DNA of 64,000 nucleotides from a virus. Below the pieces are notes generated by a model. It was not told the DNA's origin. It was given only the letters and a program-made list of their open reading frames with translations, and made no database searches. The stretch spans positions 1 to 64,000 of the IMG/VR virus record IMGVR_UViG_3300022723_000177; one strand, written 5' to 3'. How positions within the stretch are numbered: the stretch's first letter is position 1; every line of letters begins with the position of its first letter. Shown one piece after another: positions 2,718 to 11,780 of this stretch. The translations under genes and the position numbers were made by a program.

Positions 2718-2893
2718 TGCGTCACCTTTCCTGCGCGTCGGTCCACTCACGCCCAGCAGCTCCAAGCAGCGGCCCCGCAGGGATGGTTGCTCCCACCAAC
2801 CTCTCACCCCCCAGAGCCCTGCGGGGCCCATTTTGGCCTCAAGTTCCGGTGCGGACGGTCGATACGCATGAAGAGACTGACGGAGGACTCATC

Positions 2894-3475
2894 ATGAAGG
2901 TCGCGGTCTACGCGCGCGTGTCGAAGGCAGACGGCTCCCAGACCGTCGAGAATCAGCTCGGGCCCCTACGGGCGTACCTGGGCTCCAGGGGCGACGACGT
3001 CGCCGCGGAGTTCGTGGAACACGCCTCGGGAGCCGACGAGAACCGCAGCGAGCTCGGCGCGCTCCTCGAAAGGCTCGACGAGTTCGACGCGATCGCGATC
3101 GTGAAGCTCGACCGGCTCGCCCGCAGCGTCCACCACCTCACCTCTCTGGCCCGCGAGCTCGAGAGCCGTGGCGTCGACCTGATCGTGAAGGATCAGGGCA
3201 TCGATACCAGCACACCGGCCGGGAAACTGATGTTCCACGTCCTCGGCGCGGTCGCGGAGTTCGAGCGCGACCTGATCGTCGAGCGCACCAAGGCCGGCCT
3301 GGCCCGCGCCCGACGGGAAGGCAAGCAGGTCGGCCGCCCGCGCCTCCAGATCGACCTCGACCAGGCCCGCGCGGTGCTCCTGCGCGAGGGCAGCTACGCG
3401 AAGGCAGCGCGTGAGCTCGGGGTCCCCGCGACCACGCTCCGGCGCCACCTCCGCGAGGAAGGGGCTTCAGCGTGA
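2894..3475 (+). CDS. Small serine recombinase (resolvase/invertase family)
   Basis: MKVAVYARVSKADGSQ N-terminus with the catalytic Ser motif YxRVSxxxQ. C-terminal HTH (AKAARELGVPATTLRRHL). ggagga RBS 6 nt upstream of the ATG at 2894. Confidence 0.85.
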   Translation: MKVAVYARVSKADGSQTVENQLGPLRAYLGSRGDDVAAEFVEHASGADENRSELGALLERLDEFDAIAIVKLDRLARSVHHLTSLARELESRGVDLIVKDQGIDTSTPAGKLMFHVLGAVAEFERDLIVERTKAGLARARREGKQVGRPRLQIDLDQARAVLLREGSYAKAARELGVPATTLRRHLREEGASA

Positions 3476-4171: not shown

Positions 4172-4462
4172 ATGCAGAAGCGGTTCCTGGCTCTCGTGTT
4201 CTCCCTGTTCTTGGCGTTCGGCTGCGCCTACACCTCGGTCGACAAAGGCGGCGACGTCAAGCAGTACGCGTTCGGCCAGGCCGAGACCACGCACGGCGAG
4301 TGCGCGTACCCCGACGAGGGCACGCCCGAGGGTGAAGCGACCATCGATGGCGCCAACTGCACCCGCAGTTCCGGCGGTGCGTTGTCCGACACCATCGGTG
4401 GTGTCTTCGGGCAGCTGACCGACGTGCTCAAGGGGTTTCTTCCGGCTGGTTTTTCTAGCTAG
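4172..4462 (+). CDS. Secreted protein or lipoprotein (signal peptide ending LAFGC)
   Basis: MQKRFLALVFSLFLAFGCAYTS... with ggaggctccc RBS. Confidence 0.6.
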   Translation: MQKRFLALVFSLFLAFGCAYTSVDKGGDVKQYAFGQAETTHGECAYPDEGTPEGEATIDGANCTRSSGGALSDTIGGVFGQLTDVLKGFLPAGFSS

Positions 4463-4473
4463 TCCCTTCTGAC

Positions 4474-5280
4474 ATGCCCCGCATCCCCAGCTTCAGCTAT
4501 TCCAGGCTGACGTGCCTCGAGAAGTGCGAGCACCAGTATGTGACTCGCTACGTGAAGCGCGTCTACCTCAAGACCAACTCCGTCGAGAGCTTCGTCGGCG
4601 TCCTCATCCACGAGATCATCGAGAAGGCCGCCGAGCGTGGGCACCTCGAGCTTCTACCCGCGTGGGAGTACCTGTCCGAGCGATGGGAGAAGGAGTTCAA
4701 CCCTCGCGTTCATTACGACGTCCGCCAGCTAGGAGAAGACCACTGGAAGGACCACGCGATGAGGTGCGTGAAGAACTACCTGACCGGCTCCCTCGTGCCT
4801 CCAGACTGGGAGACCATCGGGCTCGAGTACCGCATGAGCTACGGCCTGCTCGATGATCCACCGGCGAAGTTTACCGGGATCGTGGATCGGCTCATCCGGC
4901 GCAACGGCGCGTACAAAGTCGAAGACTTCAAGACCGGGAAGCCCCAACCGCGCAAGTACTTCGAGCGCGACCAACAGCTTCCTCTCTACGCCTACCTCGT
5001 GGCCCGCGCATTCGCGGTGCCCGAGAACGAAACCATCGAGGTGAACAGGCACTACCTCTCGAGCGGAGAGATCCAGCCGCTCTTCGTGACCAGCGAGAGG
5101 CGAAATGCAGCGTGGCGGTGGGCCCAGGAGACCGCGCAGAAGGCGCGGAAGCTGGAAGCGGCGGCCAAGGCCGAACAGACCCGCGGAAAGCCGCACCGGA
5201 GCCCCCTGTGCGACTGGTGCGACTACAAGAAGGAGCACTGCGACGCATGGCGGAAGAGTACGAGCACGGACCCGCTGTAG
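4474..5280 (+). CDS. PD-(D/E)XK nuclease, Cas4/RecB-family exonuclease-like, with Fe-S Cys cluster
   Basis: N-terminal SFSYSRLTCLEKCEHQY. D...EDFKTGK nuclease core. C-terminal CDWCDYKKEHCDAW supplies three Cys plus the N-terminal Cys. Confidence 0.75.
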   Translation: MPRIPSFSYSRLTCLEKCEHQYVTRYVKRVYLKTNSVESFVGVLIHEIIEKAAERGHLELLPAWEYLSERWEKEFNPRVHYDVRQLGEDHWKDHAMRCVKNYLTGSLVPPDWETIGLEYRMSYGLLDDPPAKFTGIVDRLIRRNGAYKVEDFKTGKPQPRKYFERDQQLPLYAYLVARAFAVPENETIEVNRHYLSSGEIQPLFVTSERRNAAWRWAQETAQKARKLEAAAKAEQTRGKPHRSPLCDWCDYKKEHCDAWRKSTSTDPL

Positions 5281-5825
5281 ATCTCGACATCGTCGACCCG
5301 GAGGCCCGACGTGTCTACGTGGATGAGCTGCTATTCAAGGTAGGTCCACACGGGCAGTCGATCACCCACCGAGCGATCCTGTCGTTGGCGAAGACCCCCG
5401 AACCGATCGAGATCTGGGTCTCGAGCCTCGGCGGAGATGTAACCGTCGCGTTCGCGCTTTATGACTTGATCCGGGTGATCCCCAATCACGTGACGACCGT
5501 CTACTCAGGCATGGTCGCCAGCGCCGCCTGTGTGATCGCGGTGGCGGGGGATGAGCGGCTAGTCATGCCGAACGCGTCGATGCTCTGGCACCACTGTACG
5601 ACCGAGCTCGAGGGCTCTCCTGTGCAGCTACTCCACGATGCTGCGCAGGTAGAGGAGATCGCCAAGCGGTATGCGAAGATCATGGCGCGCCACTCGTCCA
5701 AGACGGCTAGGTTCTGGGAGAAGCTCTACGAGGACCACCAGGACCACATCTTCAACGCCGAAGAGATCGTGAGCCTTGGGTGCGGGGACCGGATTCTGAA
5801 GCCGCGAAGGAAGAAGAACGCGTGA
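5247..5825 (+). CDS. ClpP-like (S14 family) serine protease
   Basis: IWVSSLGGDV...YSGMVASAACVIA...MLWHH matches ClpP motifs (GxxAS nucleophile, His region). Start at the internal ATG at 5247, overlapping the upstream nuclease by 34 nt. Confidence 0.7.
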   Translation: MAEEYEHGPAVDLDIVDPEARRVYVDELLFKVGPHGQSITHRAILSLAKTPEPIEIWVSSLGGDVTVAFALYDLIRVIPNHVTTVYSGMVASAACVIAVAGDERLVMPNASMLWHHCTTELEGSPVQLLHDAAQVEEIAKRYAKIMARHSSKTARFWEKLYEDHQDHIFNAEEIVSLGCGDRILKPRRKKNA

Positions 5826-6391
5826 CCATCGCCGAGCTCGTCAAGGAGATCCTCGAGTGGATCTACCATCTCTGGCCGATCCGCCTCGTCAACGAGTGGG
5901 AGCAAGGGATTCTCGTGCGAAGCGGCACGATCGTGCGTACCTTGAACCATGACGACGGGATCCTCAAGAGCGGGTTCCACGCGTATCTACCCTTCCGCGA
6001 CTCGATCCTCACCGAGGACGCGAACATCGACATTCTCGATACAGATTACCAGGCGCTCACCACGAACGACGGCGTGCGAATCACTGTCTCGGCGATGATG
6101 CGCTTCCGAATTGTCGCGCTGGATCGCTTCTACCGGAAGATCCAAGACCCGACGAACACCCTCCAGAACGCAATGCAGGCCGCGGTCAGCCGCGCGGTTC
6201 CTCACCTGACCTGGTACGCAGAAGACGAGAGTGAAGATGTTCCGCGCCCCGAATTCGGCTTCGAGCTCTGTACGGAGCTCGAATCAGAGATCGCCGACGA
6301 CGCCGACGACTGGGGAATCCACGTGCTCGCGGTAGACATCGCGAACCTCACCGACGCACAGATTCTGCGGGTGCTCACTGACGGGGAGTAG
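5822..6391 (+). CDS. SPFH/band-7 (stomatin/prohibitin-like) domain protein
   Basis: VNEWEQGILVRSGTIVRTL...GFHAYLPF...EDANIDILD...LTTNDGVRITVSAMMRFRI is the band-7 core. GTG start at 5822 overlaps the ClpP-like stop (GTGA). Confidence 0.75.
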   Translation: MTIAELVKEILEWIYHLWPIRLVNEWEQGILVRSGTIVRTLNHDDGILKSGFHAYLPFRDSILTEDANIDILDTDYQALTTNDGVRITVSAMMRFRIVALDRFYRKIQDPTNTLQNAMQAAVSRAVPHLTWYAEDESEDVPRPEFGFELCTELESEIADDADDWGIHVLAVDIANLTDAQILRVLTDGE

Positions 6392-6418: not shown

Positions 6419-8029
6419 ATGAACCCTCAACAGCTCCCCGAGAAGTTTCTGGACTTCGAGTGGTTCGCGAACCGGTTCTTCTCCATTCGCGATCGGTCTG
6501 CGAATCTGATCCCGTTCGCGATGAACCCGCTCCAGAAAACTCTCTACCCAAACCTAAACGGCCACGACGACGTGCTGAAGGCGCGGAAGGGAGGGGTGTC
6601 GACGCTCATCGATCTGCTGGCACTCCACCGCGCGCTAACGCGCATGAATCAAAACTGCCTGATCGTGGCCCACCGGAAGGATTCCGCCCTGGAACTCTTC
6701 CGCATCGTGCGTACTGCGTACGACCATCTACCCGACCAGCTCCGCCCCCGCCTCAAGGTCGACACCAGGACCGAGCTCGAGTTCGCCGGCATCGGTAGCC
6801 GCATCTCAGTACAGACCGCGCGCACCAGCGACATCGGTCGTGCGTCTACCATCGACTTCCTTCATTGCTCTGAGATCGCGTTCTGGGACGAGCCCCAAAA
6901 GATCATGGCCGCAGCGGGCGCTGCACTCGGCGATGGCTCGGAGGTGTACCGAGAGTCGACGCCGAACGGCGCGGGTAACTACTGGCACACGGAGTGGATC
7001 AAGGGAAAGGCGCGCCAGTCCGGCTATCAACCGCACTTCTTTGATTGGCGCGTTGAACCGTCCTACCGAATCCGCGAGGCCAACGCGTTGCGGGACCCAG
7101 AGGAGTTCCATCCCGACGGGACCCCGAAGTTCCAGCGCGACGCAGACCGAGAGTTCGTGTTCAATGAGGAGGAGCGGGCTCTCGAGCTCGATCCGCACCA
7201 GGCTCGGTGGCGGCGGCGCAAGAAGAAGGAGCACGGTGACCTGTTCAAGCAGGAGTACCCCGAGGACGACATCACCTGCTTCATCACCTCAGGCGCGAAT
7301 TTCTTCGACATCGCGTTGGTGCAGAAGCAGTACGATGCGCTCGCGACCTTCATGCGTCAGGGCACGCTACTGAAGCGCGAGGAGCCTGCGCTCGGGATGA
7401 AGATCTGGCACAGCTTCAGTGACAAAGACTGGATGCATTGTGAGTTCGTGATCGGCGCAGACACCTCGGAGGGGCTGGTTGGCGACGGGGATGAGGACCA
7501 CGGCGATTTCTCGGCCGCGACGATTCTTGAGAAGCGGACCGGTCTGCAGGTGGCCACCATGCATGGTCTGTGGGAGCCCTACGAGTTCGCCCACGTTCTG
7601 GCCAAGGCGGGGACGCTCTTCGCTACGCCGGCGGGCGGAGCGGCCCTCCTCGGGGTAGAGCGCAACGAGTACGGCCACGCGGTATTGAACGAGCTCCTAC
7701 GTCACATCAAGTACCCGAATCTCTACTACCACACCGACTTCGACGAGCAGCGCGGGCGCCACATCCGCAAACTCGGTTGGCGGACGAATGCCGGGACCCG
7801 GCCGCTCATGCTCGGAGACCTCCAGAAGGCCCTTGGGAAGGGGTACTTCCGGCCGCGCGACCCAGAGTTCCTAGCTGAGTGCATGCAGTTCGTTCGAAAA
7901 CGGAACGGTCGTCCCGAAGCCCAGCAAGGATGTTTCGACGACCGAGTGATCAGCGCGGCGATCGCCTGGCAGATGCGCCAGACCTATTCAAGCGTCCCCC
8001 TCGTGGGCACGAACATAGACGTAGGGTAG
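6419..8029 (+). CDS. terL: Terminase large subunit
   Basis: ATPase motifs (LKARKGGVST Walker-A-like, HCSEIAFWDE Walker B, STPNG). C-terminal nuclease-like region. 536 aa. Position ahead of the portal gene. Confidence 0.9.
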   Translation: MNPQQLPEKFLDFEWFANRFFSIRDRSANLIPFAMNPLQKTLYPNLNGHDDVLKARKGGVSTLIDLLALHRALTRMNQNCLIVAHRKDSALELFRIVRTAYDHLPDQLRPRLKVDTRTELEFAGIGSRISVQTARTSDIGRASTIDFLHCSEIAFWDEPQKIMAAAGAALGDGSEVYRESTPNGAGNYWHTEWIKGKARQSGYQPHFFDWRVEPSYRIREANALRDPEEFHPDGTPKFQRDADREFVFNEEERALELDPHQARWRRRKKKEHGDLFKQEYPEDDITCFITSGANFFDIALVQKQYDALATFMRQGTLLKREEPALGMKIWHSFSDKDWMHCEFVIGADTSEGLVGDGDEDHGDFSAATILEKRTGLQVATMHGLWEPYEFAHVLAKAGTLFATPAGGAALLGVERNEYGHAVLNELLRHIKYPNLYYHTDFDEQRGRHIRKLGWRTNAGTRPLMLGDLQKALGKGYFRPRDPEFLAECMQFVRKRNGRPEAQQGCFDDRVISAAIAWQMRQTYSSVPLVGTNIDVG

Positions 8030-8053: not shown

Positions 8054-9895
8054 ATGGCTCGCATGCCCACCCTTTCGCTCACCTCGGCCTCGCGCCGGCT
8101 CCGCCGGACGAAGGAAGGTCCCGGAGCGATCTTCGACATCACCGAGCGCCGCCACATGCGGTTCAATCTCTACGAGGAGCACTGGCGCTTCCTCTACGAG
8201 AGCTACATCGGTGGACCCGAGTACGTCTACAAGGGCTTCGAACAGGTTGGCGCCAACGCGCGCGGGATCTTCGATCTGAACCGCCGCAACCTCTTCCAGT
8301 TCCACCGCGAGAGCTCGAGCGAGTACCGCGAGCGCTTGCTCCGCGCACATCGGAACAACTACACCAAGAAGGTCGTGGACCAGATGCGCTCGTTCATCGC
8401 GCGCAAGCCGCCCGAACGGAAGACTGACGGCGTACCTACGCCCATCGCGGAGTTCTGGAAGAACAGCGATGGTCGACACCGAAACATCGACCGAACCATG
8501 ATGCTCGTGCTCCAGTGGATGCTGGTGTTCGGGGTGATCTGGATCCAGATCGACAAACCAGATCGCACCTTTCTCAATTTCGAGGACGAGCTTCGCGAAG
8601 GCGTACCCTTCATGAAGTTCCACATGCCGTTCGATGTACTAGACGGGGGTTTCGATGACCTAGGTGAGCCGCGCTGGGTCCTCACACGAGAGCTTGTGCG
8701 GCAGGACGAAGACCCGATGCAAGGGACTCCCGTCGAGACGATCTTCACTCTCTGGGAACCCAATCAGATGCGGAAGTTCGTGAAGCAGAACGTAACGCGC
8801 GAGGATCCGCGTCCGTTCGTGCAGGTAGGAGAGACCGTCTTTCACGACCTCGGCAGGGTGCCGTTTCGCGCCGTGCGCTTCACAGAGAGCGAGGACCCGT
8901 TCGTTACCGCCGGAATGGTGGATGACATCGCCTCGGTCGATCGCGACATCTTCAACAAGCAGTCTCAGCTGGACACGATCATCCTCGACCAGGTGTTCTC
9001 GCAGCTCGTGATCCCCGCAGACGCTGTACTCATGAACACGCCGGATCGCGCGGAGATGAACGGCGCCTCTGTCCGTGCGAACCGCGAGATCGCCCGTGAG
9101 CGTCTCATCGAGATGAGCACCAAGCGCGCGTTCTTGTTCAACGGGAATACCGCGCATCCGCCGCGCTTCATTTCGCCCGACGCAGAACAGGCGGGGACGC
9201 TGCGCGAGGAGATTTCCGGCCTCATCGACGAGGTCTACCGCATGGCCGGCCTGTCTGGAATGGTGGGGCGTGAGGTGAAGACGCAGAGCGGCGTGTCGAA
9301 GGCCTATGACTTCGATCGCATGAACAAGATCATGACGTTCGCCGCGCAGGAGCTGCAGAACGCAGATGAGTGGGCTGCCGAGGTAGTGCTCGAGTGGATG
9401 CGACCTGAAGAACAGCCCGCGTTCCAGCAACGCAAGCGCATCACGAACGACTTTGTCCAGTACCCGGACAACTTCGACATCATGGGGCTGCTCGAAAGCC
9501 TGGACATCGCGTTCCGCACAGATGAGTACAATCTGCATTCGCCGACCGCGTCTGCGCGGATCCGAAAGAAGCTGCTGGTGAAGATGTTCCCCGAGGCCAC
9601 CGAGGATGAACTCGAAGAGATGGTGGCGGAGATCGACCAGGTGCTCGAGCGCGAAAAGAAGATGCAAAAGGACGGACCGCTGGGAACGGCTGGCCTGCTC
9701 CAGCAGTCCGAAGAGGAGCTCGAGCGCATCGCGAACGGGGACTCTCAGGAACCGGCGGTGGGCAACGCCCGCCGAGGGCGAAACGTGAACCTCTCAGAGG
9801 TTCGCGGGCAGGGCGGAGGAGCGCGCGGCCCCGGCCGCGGCGAGCCGACTAGGCCGACCACCCAGCAGGCCCGGCAAGCCGGAGACTCTACCTAG
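8054..9895 (+). CDS. Portal protein (putative)
   Basis: 613-aa ORF directly after terL, with the size and acidic C-terminus typical of portal proteins. No motif-level confirmation is possible by eye. Confidence 0.65.
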   Translation: MARMPTLSLTSASRRLRRTKEGPGAIFDITERRHMRFNLYEEHWRFLYESYIGGPEYVYKGFEQVGANARGIFDLNRRNLFQFHRESSSEYRERLLRAHRNNYTKKVVDQMRSFIARKPPERKTDGVPTPIAEFWKNSDGRHRNIDRTMMLVLQWMLVFGVIWIQIDKPDRTFLNFEDELREGVPFMKFHMPFDVLDGGFDDLGEPRWVLTRELVRQDEDPMQGTPVETIFTLWEPNQMRKFVKQNVTREDPRPFVQVGETVFHDLGRVPFRAVRFTESEDPFVTAGMVDDIASVDRDIFNKQSQLDTIILDQVFSQLVIPADAVLMNTPDRAEMNGASVRANREIARERLIEMSTKRAFLFNGNTAHPPRFISPDAEQAGTLREEISGLIDEVYRMAGLSGMVGREVKTQSGVSKAYDFDRMNKIMTFAAQELQNADEWAAEVVLEWMRPEEQPAFQQRKRITNDFVQYPDNFDIMGLLESLDIAFRTDEYNLHSPTASARIRKKLLVKMFPEATEDELEEMVAEIDQVLEREKKMQKDGPLGTAGLLQQSEEELERIANGDSQEPAVGNARRGRNVNLSEVRGQGGGARGPGRGEPTRPTTQQARQAGDST

Positions 9896-9971
9896 GAGTT
9901 GCCGGCCGGGTTCCTCGGGGGTACACTGCGCACTACCAGCGCATGGCGTGCCGGGGAAACGGAGAAGACGG

Positions 9972-10838
9972 ATGTCCGAAGAGAACAAGAACAAGAACGG
10001 CGGCGAAGGTGATGAGAGCGGCGAGAACAAGCCCAGCCAGGTTCAGATGACCCAGGAGCAGATCGAAGAGCTGATCAACAAGGCCTACGCGCGCGGCGCG
10101 AAGAACTCCCGGGAGGGCAAGGAAGCCCGCGAGACCGCAGAGCGCCTCGAGAAGATGGAAGCCGACAAGGCCAAGGTCGAGGCAGAGCTCGAGGAGCTGA
10201 AGAAGCGCGCCGCCCAGGGCGGCGCAGGCGGCGGCGCAGGCGGCGGCGCAGGCGGCGGCGCAGGCGGCGGCGCAGGCGGCGGCGACGGAGCTGGTAGCCC
10301 CGAGGTCACTCAGCTCCAGGACCAGATCGAGACCCTCAAGAAGAACTACAACGACCGCATCGAGACCCTGACCGGAGAGATCGCGTCCGAGCGGAAGGAA
10401 AAGGAAGCCCGAGACCTGAGGCTGATCCTGAGTGACCTGAAGGGCTCGGCGATCGCAGCGGCAACAAAGGGCGGAGCTGCAGACCCCGAGGATGTGTTCA
10501 TCCTGATGAACTCCAGGGGGCTGTTCAAGATCGACGAGGACACAGGTCGGTGGCACGTTACGGGCCCCGACGGCAAGGTAGTCCTCGATGTCGAGGCGGG
10601 TGGCGACCCGATGGCCTTGGAGAAGGGCATCGAACGCTGGATGGACCAGAACCCGCGAGTGAAGCGGGGGACGGGGCGCACGGGCGGAGGCCCGGGTGGT
10701 GGTGAGGGAGGTTCCCACACCGAAGTGCCTATCGGAGGAGACAAGACCCTGAACCTGGACGGCGCATCGCCGTCTCAGATCTTCGCGAACAAGGATGCGA
10801 TCCTGGCGAAGATCAAGTCGGGCGGTCTCCAGCGCTAG
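9972..10838 (+). CDS. Scaffolding protein (coiled-coil, with a (GGAGGG)5 linker)
   Basis: Charged coiled-coil-type sequence between portal and capsid genes. ATG at 9972 with ggag RBS. Internal tandem DNA repeat at 10216-10277. Confidence 0.6.
   Translation: MSEENKNKNGGEGDESGENKPSQVQMTQEQIEELINKAYARGAKNSREGKEARETAERLEKMEADKAKVEAELEELKKRAAQGGAGGGAGGGAGGGAGGGAGGGDGAGSPEVTQLQDQIETLKKNYNDRIETLTGEIASERKEKEARDLRLILSDLKGSAIAAATKGGAADPEDVFILMNSRGLFKIDEDTGRWHVTGPDGKVVLDVEAGGDPMALEKGIERWMDQNPRVKRGTGRTGGGPGGGEGGSHTEVPIGGDKTLNLDGASPSQIFANKDAILAKIKSGGLQR
10216..10277 (+). repeat. Tandem 12-bp repeat (ggcggcgcaggc) x5 encoding a (GGAG)n flexible linker inside the scaffold gene
   Basis: Direct reading of the sequence. 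Confidence 0.8.
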
Positions 10839-10868: not shown

Positions 10869-11780
10869 ATGGCCAACATCAGTCTTGGTGAAGTCGATGT
10901 CGCCATCCCGGAGTTCTGGTCCTCGGTCGCCCTCGGCGCCCTGAAGGCGAACACCGTAATGGCGCAGCTCGTCCGGCGCGACTTCGACGCAGAGGTCGCC
11001 ACGGTCGGCGACACGGTGAATGTGATCCGACGTGGCTCGCTTGTTGTCAACGACAAGTCGATCAACTCGGGCGTCACGCTCCAGAACCCCACGCAGACGA
11101 AGCTCCCGATCGTCCTTGACCAGCACAAGGAGGTGTCCTTTCTCATCGAAGACATCGCCAGTGCGAAGGCCATCGACGACGCTGTGAACTTCGTCGAGGA
11201 TGCCGCGATCGTCATCGCGGAGGATGTGGATCTCGCGCTACTCAACCTGTACGTGAACGCCGGCTCGTTCGTCGGCGCGTTCACGGACGACCTCGATGTC
11301 CCTGTCGTGGTGGCTGCTCGGCGCGCCCTGAACGACCAGAAGTGCCCGCAGCGCGGACGCGTGCTGGTTGTGGGGTCCGGTCCGGAGGCTTCGCTGCTGA
11401 ACAAGGTCGAGTTCACGAGCTCGGACTTCGGCGGCGACGTGAGTCGTATGGCCGTGATCGAGGCGAACCTCGGTCGCAAGTACGGCTTCGACTTCTTCAT
11501 GGACCAGCAGACGGTCGAGGCGAGCGCCAACCAGGTGAGCAACATCGCGTTCCACCGCGATGCGTTCGTCCTGATCACGCGGCTCCTGCCCATCCCGCCC
11601 CCGAGCACCGGCGCCCAGGCGTCAGCGGTGTCGGAGGATGGCGTCGCGATGCGCGCGATCCGGTCCTACAACATTCAGCAGCTCGGCATGCAGATGACGA
11701 TCGACATCCTCTACGGTGTCAAGGCTCTGCGCGCTGACACGCACGCTGTCGAGGTCCGGTCGAACAACGCGACCAGCTAG
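10869..11780 (+). CDS. Major capsid protein (putative)
   Basis: 303-aa ORF with strong RBS (gaaaggaacaaggcaATG) immediately after the scaffold gene. Canonical position. Confidence 0.7.
   Translation: MANISLGEVDVAIPEFWSSVALGALKANTVMAQLVRRDFDAEVATVGDTVNVIRRGSLVVNDKSINSGVTLQNPTQTKLPIVLDQHKEVSFLIEDIASAKAIDDAVNFVEDAAIVIAEDVDLALLNLYVNAGSFVGAFTDDLDVPVVVAARRALNDQKCPQRGRVLVVGSGPEASLLNKVEFTSSDFGGDVSRMAVIEANLGRKYGFDFFMDQQTVEASANQVSNIAFHRDAFVLITRLLPIPPPSTGAQASAVSEDGVAMRAIRSYNIQQLGMQMTIDILYGVKALRADTHAVEVRSNNATS

Follow-up and report, generated by a model that had tools for sequence, protein, structure and literature searches.

An overlapping ClpP-like protease and truncated SPFH protein gene pair upstream of the terminase of an uncultivated tailed phage, probably a chance neighbourhood rather than a viral NfeD/STOPP-stomatin system

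In a stretch of viral DNA of 64,000 nucleotides (nt), positions 1 to 64,000 of IMG/VR record IMGVR_UViG_3300022723_000177 and referred to here in its entirety as the window, a gene for a ClpP-like serine protease runs into a gene for a protein of the SPFH/band-7 family, with a gene for a Cas4-like nuclease immediately upstream and that for the large terminase, terL, downstream. Is the pair a phage form of the cellular NfeD/STOPP-stomatin operons, whose architecture a sequence-only reading of the DNA had seen in it, or have two families met by accident? The answer favoured here, with a probability of roughly one half, is that this is no phage NfeD/STOPP-stomatin system but three separate accessory genes of a novel uncultivated tailed phage, located where its replication/recombination genes meet the late packaging operon. 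The protease and SPFH genes are probably a chance neighbourhood of the kind expected from ordinary phage mosaicism, because related phages keep only the SPFH gene. The product of the latter, here termed mini-SPFH, is encoded directly upstream of terL by a gene whose position is conserved in the clade of the window phage. The features on which the argument turns are these, with lengths in amino acids (aa).

4474..5280, + strand: Cas4-like PD-(D/E)XK exonuclease, 268 aa (PF12705, PDDEXK_1, E 5e-26; phrog_69 exonuclease, E 5e-21)
5247..5825, + strand: ClpP-family (S14) serine protease, 192 aa, predicted to be soluble (PF00574, E 4.5e-23; phrog_94, E 5e-28)
5520..5522, + strand: codon for Ser92, the predicted nucleophile (GMVAS, motif from residue 88), aligned to Ser98 of S. 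aureus ClpP
5589..5591, + strand: codon for His115, predicted to be catalytic (MLWHH, motif from residue 112), aligned to His123 of S. aureus ClpP
5742..5744, + strand: codon for Asp166, predicted to be catalytic (HQDHIF), aligned to Asp172 of S. aureus ClpP
5822..5825, + strand: GTGA start/stop overlap of the ClpP-like and SPFH genes, read from the sequence
5822..6391, + strand: mini-SPFH protein, 189 aa, with an N-terminal amphipathic helix, SPFH1 and SPFH2 (PF01145, Band_7, E 3.9e-17; AlphaFold2 (AF2) model; Foldseek)
5828..5872, + strand: N-terminal amphipathic helix of mini-SPFH, residues 3-17, IAELVKEILEWIYHL, a candidate in-plane membrane anchor (AF2 model; Eisenberg scale)

The window is a high-GC phage genome (~63% GC) in which lipoprotein, nuclease, ClpP-like, SPFH, terL, portal, scaffold and capsid genes follow one another, tightly packed, on the + strand. 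The three domain assignments are not chance since the hidden Markov model (HMM) matches exceed curated thresholds, and the Pfam models that the sequence-only reading had proposed for checking them (CLP_protease, Band_7 and PDDEXK_1) all matched. For the protease, PF00574 scored 82.5 bits with a gathering cut-off of 20.2, placing it in the S14 family, and the GMVAS and MLWHH motifs are present; for the SPFH protein, PF01145 scored 63.3 bits with a cut-off of 23.6, placing it in the SPFH/Band 7 family; the nuclease is also where it had been said to be. The GTGA overlap is likewise real, from a GTG start at 5822 that is backed by about 50 homologues beginning at the same MT(L/I)GEL position; the public gene call starts the SPFH gene at 5780 (203 aa). 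The likeliest start of the protease is the ATG at 5247, in agreement with the public gene call P0174, a start that gives the protease gene 34 nt in common with the end of the nuclease gene. The public calls are those of a 65.8-kb JGI contig, in which P0174 is identical to the ClpP-like protein and P0001 matches the SPFH protein at 99% identity, and the same gene order recurs on a 10-kb Logan contig encoding an identical ClpP-like protein.

The adjacency of ClpP-like and mini-SPFH genes is itself a single occurrence, and it is the sister phages that are most telling. A metagenome locus, L046, encodes relatives of the window proteins with identities of 66% for capsid, 51% for terL, 49% for portal, 42% for Cas4, 32% for SPFH and 31% for scaffold, in the order Cas4, 105-aa lipoprotein, SPFH, terL, portal, scaffold, capsid. 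The gap from the Cas4 to the SPFH gene there is 250 nt, which leaves no room for a ClpP gene. In two further loci, L052 and L028, the order is lipoprotein then SPFH (then terL). The unit conserved upstream of terL in the clade is thus Cas4, small lipoprotein and mini-SPFH, and the ClpP-like gene, being absent from that locus in the sister phages, is specific to the lineage of the window. The SPFH gene evolves much faster than the genes for structural proteins, as would suit an accessory role. Lipoprotein genes lie directly upstream of the mini-SPFH gene in each sister (L046 320-637; L052 1531-1800, - strand; L028 1313-1564, - strand), and their products are mutually homologous (E 2e-10) with weak similarity to the lipoprotein of the window at 4172-4462 (E 0.006); a possible role for the lipoprotein is that of a partner to the SPFH protein, at the membrane or in exclusion.

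The overlap of start and stop codons adds nothing to the case for a dedicated pair. Fifteen of the 67 same-strand junctions in the window (22%) are 4-nt start/stop overlaps, and 30 of the 67 overlap in some way, so that such overlaps are ordinary for this genome and the GTGA is no evidence for special coupling. Between 3400 and 6500 no sigma-70 promoter or terminator consensus was found, and nothing promoter- or terminator-like divides the trio from the late operon.

What, then, of the likeness to the NfeD/STOPP-stomatin operons? It extends to the placing of a gene for a ClpP-fold serine protease directly 5′ of, and overlapping, an SPFH gene, as for NfeD (STOPP, PH1510 of P. horikoshii) with stomatin (PH1511) and for E. 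coli YbbJ-QmcA. Beyond two Pfam names the claim of a shared architecture fails, as the defining features are missing and the pairing is not conserved, in L046, L052, L028 or the other mini-SPFH loci. Unlike NfeD, the window protease has no NfeD OB-fold (PF01957), nor any Pfam domain besides PF00574 at E <= 0.01, and no match to NfeD was found among the neighbouring open reading frames (ORFs). It also lacks membrane segments, its lone hydrophobic peak (KD19 hydropathy 1.8, residues 82-100) being the active-site core. The STOPP protease 1510-N of PH1510 uses a Ser-Lys dyad, whereas alignment gives the window protein an intact ClpP-type Ser-His-Asp triad, Ser92, His115 and Asp166 falling on Ser98, His123 and Asp172 of the S. 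aureus enzyme. Among solved structures its best relatives by sequence are bona fide ClpP, yet it scores below the cut-offs of the cellular ClpP equivalogs, with 85 bits against 228 for PRK12553, the best of them, and 43 bits against 309 for TIGR00493.

The SPFH partner differs just as much. The AF2 model (predicted local distance difference test, pLDDT, 95) has an N-terminal helix, SPFH1 and SPFH2, and Foldseek matches it to stomatin (E 4e-13) and also to HflK/C, QmcA and prohibitin; the HflK/HflC equivalog TIGR01932 gives 50.9 bits, where 134 are needed, over its N-terminal 110 positions only. A transmembrane (TM) helix, for which the sequence-only reading had suggested looking, is not there, and neither is a hairpin, the KD19 maximum of 1.17 being under the TM range. 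The protein has no coiled coil or C-terminal hydrophobic tail either, and the 189-aa chain stops after SPFH2, while the solved stomatin and HflK/C chains run some 80-230 residues further, into the coiled coil from which their cages are built. Ending where it does, the protein has no counterpart of the hydrophobic C-terminal region at which STOPP cuts stomatin. Its N-terminal helix is of the amphipathic kind, with a hydrophobic moment of 0.63 and a mean hydrophobicity of 0.40 on the Eisenberg scale, so that peripheral binding to a membrane by way of this modelled helix is plausible. The net charge of the window protein, -19, is the extreme of its family (median -4), with much of the acidity in residues 133-163, overlapping a lower-confidence segment of the model (mean pLDDT 83, residues 131-140); the idea of a DNA mimic that the charge brought to mind was dropped, as acidity is not a family trait.

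SPFH proteins without a membrane anchor are not without precedent. YdjI (SamI) of the B. subtilis PspA operon has no TM segment, is recruited to the membrane by its partners YdjG/H and links PspA to it (PMC8581546). YdjI resembles mini-SPFH in lacking an anchor while acting at the membrane; it differs in its much greater length, which takes in a zinc finger and a C-terminal region, and partners of the YdjG/H type were not seen in the window. SPFH/Band-7 genes are also already known in phages, among them Vi01-like phages, the T4-like 44RR, Aeh1 and RB43, DLP5 and StarPlatinum. These annotated examples, none with an assigned function, are unlike the window protein in that most are 260-340 aa long and include membrane or coiled-coil segments, and tblastn of the window SPFH protein matches none of them. 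An uncultured-phage ‘HflK’, A0A6J7WFI0 (173 aa, in BFVD), does have the same truncated architecture, with a TM-score of 0.82 on the target.

The truncated form turns out to be a family of its own. An exhaustive HMMER search over 1.84 billion representatives (E <= 1e-3, clusters at 50% identity) gave 387 mini-SPFH clusters, nearly all of 152-208 aa (median 180) and aligning end to end, found almost entirely on phage-like contigs. Its profile is nearest to stomatin (E 2e-19), with PH1511 and QmcA also matched, and the maximum KD19 has a median of 1.26, exceeding 1.6 in 22 of 165 members. By simpler means the family is hard to see: tblastn with the window SPFH protein against 50,697 cultured phages gave no match, word-index searches with either it or the ClpP-like protein returned only the phage itself, and single-query scans of IMG/VR with the SPFH, terL and ClpP-like proteins found no relatives.

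About 40 distinct mini-SPFH loci were gathered from IMG/VR, metagenomes, metagenome-assembled genomes (MAGs) and exact-protein look-ups, in part by means of a degenerate DNA pattern that picks the WP...WEQG subset of the family; neighbours were annotated with Pfam, PHROGs and local phmmer/blastp clustering, and genes on fragments were called by an ORF/GC3 heuristic of our own. A ClpP homologue near mini-SPFH occurs, among these loci, only in the window. The commonest neighbours are terL and DNA polymerases. In six loci besides the window (L007, L017, L026, L046, L052 and L056) terL is no more than two genes away, with an 81-aa gene between SPFH and terL in L017 and the order terL-SPFH-portal in L007. 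In about ten (L003, L010, L011, L013, L019/23, L020, L044, L063, L034) replication genes are near, those for family-A or DnaE polymerases among them. In one subclade (L015, L049) an S78/XkdF prohead protease gene is directly downstream, within a head module; the capsid protein encoded there shares 45% identity with its counterpart in Vibrio phage J26.

Several of these surroundings are of interest in their own right. On three phage-like contigs (L016 768-1946, L031 2655-3101 and L045 57-629) mini-SPFH directly follows a MazZ-like dATP/dGTP diphosphohydrolase (PF18909), and in L016 an HD-domain protein is also encoded upstream of it; MazZ-like and HD nucleotide hydrolase genes are typical of phages with 2-aminoadenine (Z) genomes. 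Directly downstream of mini-SPFH in two others (L020 6239-6916 and L044 3363-4067, both - strand) is a GGDEF diguanylate cyclase (PF00990, E 7.5e-40), on contigs that also have a family-A DNA polymerase. Phage contigs of 85-178 kb (L010, 2719-3906 and 8849-12124; L011, 742-2010 and 9781-13092) have mini-SPFH right after a DnaE-type polymerase, and encode in addition a reverse transcriptase (RVT_1) and a ribonucleotide reductase split by an intein with an HNH domain. A further copy (L067 3941-4498, - strand; 248 bits to the family profile) is alone on the opposite strand of a 119-kb contig from a Deltaproteobacteria MAG, with cellular genes around it, including RF3/prfC and a Rce1-like CAAX protease; given such company, the family is not strictly viral, and the copy may hint at the host group.

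The first of the rival explanations is that the ClpP-like protein, though its gene departs from the usual order, is a prohead maturation protease, which would enter procapsids and degrade the 296-aa scaffold, with the SPFH gene an unrelated neighbour. The genes against which this must be judged are as follows.

4172..4462, + strand: small lipoprotein gene, 96 aa, MQKRFLALVFSLFLAFGC lipobox (sequence and hydropathy), a context gene
6419..8029, + strand: large terminase, terL (phrog_2, E 9e-22; 51% identical to that of L046), context
8054..9895, + strand: portal (phrog_145, E 2e-50), context
9948..10838, + strand: scaffolding protein with a Gly/Ala repeat (phrog_206, E 1e-6; PF06810, E 4e-4, under its cut-off), context
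10869..11780, + strand: P22-type major capsid protein, 303 aa, without the delta domain (PF11651, E 4e-23; phrog_283, E 5e-42), context

The position of the protease before terL rather than after the portal, as the sequence-only reading had pointed out, is right: it is two genes and some 600 nt upstream of terL, with no interruption in the direction of transcription, and proximity of this sort to the late genes argues for a head function. So do the best PHROG matches, which lean to ‘head maturation protease’ (phrog_2976 and phrog_1684 as well as phrog_94), and the fact that most of the 979 matches to it in cultured phages are annotated as capsid maturation proteases. Close matches in Xanthomonas phages Valrath and phiL7 are located between the portal and a capsid gene of ~395 aa, and MT839851, another good match, has the canonical portal-protease arrangement. 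No other protease was seen with Pfam or PHROGs in the head module of the window. The S14 head-maturation proteases, such as phiL7 P05 and gp4 of the mycobacteriophages of cluster P, resemble the window protein in belonging to its Pfam and PHROG families, in having the triad and in an identity of ~30%; they differ from it in being encoded between the portal and a longer capsid protein rather than upstream of terL. The ClpP-related head maturation protease model NF045542 gives it 72.4 bits against a cut-off of 120, and ~30% is about its identity to canonical head proteases, to cellular ClpP and to a Clp-like protein of Myxococcus phage Mx1 alike.

That Mx1 protein (WNM70285.1; 33% identity, E 5e-14) is the best match in a cultured phage, and like the window protein it is free-standing, ~190 aa long and encoded outside the head module. 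Its gene differs in following a primase-helicase gene in the replication module and in preceding a gene for a TM protein rather than for an SPFH protein. This TM protein gene abuts it and encodes 189 aa, among them a TM helix at the N terminus and a charged region of repeat-like character, so that Mx1 has a different protease-plus-membrane-protein pairing (L022 4914-6046); that this neighbour might be a hidden SPFH or NfeD protein was ruled out, with an hhalign probability of 0.2%, no Pfam match and its nature as a TM protein.

Two considerations weigh most against a displaced head protease. P22-like assembly, with a short capsid protein and a separate scaffold, usually needs no protease, and the window phage has just such a capsid and scaffold. 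Moreover, the homologous head modules of L046, of L070 (capsid 72% identical) and, at a greater distance, of L071 and phage nickie all have the order terL-portal-scaffold-capsid, in which a protease gene is absent from between portal and capsid, and in L046 there is none upstream of terL. It is chiefly because of these protease-free relatives and the P22-type capsid with its separate scaffold that a displaced head protease, which the sequence-only reading had offered as its alternative, is rated unlikely though far from negligible: possible as such, it has been weakened by the head modules of all the relatives seen. Within the scaffolding protein (9948-10838) there is a perfect Gly/Ala repeat, GGAGGGAGGGAGGGAGGGAGGGDGAG, at about residues 90-115.

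A second rival is that the pair is real after all, as a minimal protease-scaffold system like STOPP-stomatin or FtsH-HflK/C, in which a mini-SPFH oligomer would recruit, confine or gate the protease, possibly at a membrane; in a broader form of the idea, phage head proteases may have mini-SPFH proteins as their chaperones or regulators. The genes are adjacent with overlapping start and stop codons, the stomatin-like profile of the family points the same way, and SPFH proteins generally partner with proteases in cells (PMC13086221). The position of mini-SPFH in L015 and L049, directly before an unrelated type of prohead protease, is consistent with it too. Most mini-SPFH loci, however, have no protease neighbour and the sister phages keep SPFH without ClpP; the NfeD domain, TM segment, coiled coil and C-terminal substrate tail are all wanting; the overlap is generic in this genome; and with two independent lineages only, protease adjacency is by a rough estimate marginally above chance. 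A functional pair is retained as a doubtful proposition on account of the association known in cells and of the prohead protease adjacency in L015 and L049.

Very improbable is the proposal that the trio makes up a module for anti-defence or superinfection exclusion, or, in a variant, that mini-SPFH in its slot upstream of terL replaces the small terminase: the lipoprotein gene does accompany the SPFH gene in the clade, an SPFH gene adjoins a superinfection-exclusion gene in Vi01-like phages, the Pfam and PHROG matches of the window proteins include no recognisable small terminase upstream of terL, and six other loci have mini-SPFH close to terL, but PADLOC, contrary to the anti-defence suggestion of the sequence-only reading, gave no defence or anti-defence match for protease or SPFH protein, known small terminases do not resemble the SPFH fold, the window protein is strongly acidic, many family members adjoin DNA polymerases far from terL, and the arrangements in L017 and L007 do not suit the variant. 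As a role for the family as a whole, that of small terminase was rejected because of the many members beside polymerases and the acidity of the protein.

The reading of the three genes as separate accessory genes has a mechanistic side that must be worded with more caution than the gene orders. An independently acquired accessory protease is given about even odds. The ClpP-like gene would have been acquired in this lineage alone, by insertion at a module boundary that tolerates it, and its product would be a soluble, self-compartmentalising protease acting independently of the SPFH protein. Mini-SPFH, by analogy with the TM-less YdjI, may be an oligomeric scaffold that is bound peripherally to a membrane through its amphipathic helix or through a partner protein; made with the late genes, it would modulate a membrane-associated process of host or phage. 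It is the fold of the protein and the example of YdjI that suggest this action. The Cas4-like protein would be the usual phage recombination exonuclease. It has the motifs GIVD(138)RL, VE(150)DFK(153) and QQLPLY. Fe-S nucleases of the Cas4/AddB type have four cysteines, one near the N terminus and three as CX2CX5C; the cysteines here are C14/C18 and C246-x2-C249-x6-C256, the x6 spacing, rather than the canonical x5, being common to it and its L046 orthologue (42% identical); the CRISPR cas4 model TIGR00372 scores it at 19 bits against a cut-off of 65, so it is not a member of that equivalog.

Several points tell against separateness. Two families with a well-known cellular partnership would have had to become adjacent and overlapping by chance, for which a rough estimate at a module-boundary hot spot is 5-15%. 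In a second lineage, that of L015 and L049, mini-SPFH is directly upstream of a protease gene of the unrelated S78/XkdF type, a hint of a recurring protease link. The L046 contig was read over ~7 kb only, and another part of its genome could encode ClpP. The sample of contexts is small and biased by the DNA pattern, with many fragments of less than 2 kb, and the action suggested for mini-SPFH is argued from analogy.

Some 3-4 kb upstream of terL the window encodes an HNH endonuclease, at 1574-2275 (phrog_2255, E 1e-29), as well as a serine recombinase of small size, at 2881-3475 (resolvase plus helix-turn-helix (HTH); Pfam E 2e-41).

A wider, and quite speculative, proposal is that mini-SPFH proteins are widespread and unrecognised phage factors, a stomatin-like core cut down to amphipathic helix and SPFH1-SPFH2, that organise or gate late assembly (terminase, portal, prohead protease) or replication at a membrane, one of which has here recruited a free-standing ClpP-type protease to give a minimal soluble counterpart of STOPP-stomatin or FtsH-HflK/C. 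If the pair were functional, viruses too would use the cellular principle of a protease with an SPFH scaffold, in a stripped-down soluble form, and it would provide a small and tractable model for the control of proteases by SPFH proteins. The more solid result is the large family of ~180-aa mini-SPFH proteins whose genes recur beside those for terminase, portal, prohead protease and DNA polymerase. It is this family, rather than the ClpP/SPFH pair, that is the more interesting lead, and it merits systematic study of its gene neighbourhoods.

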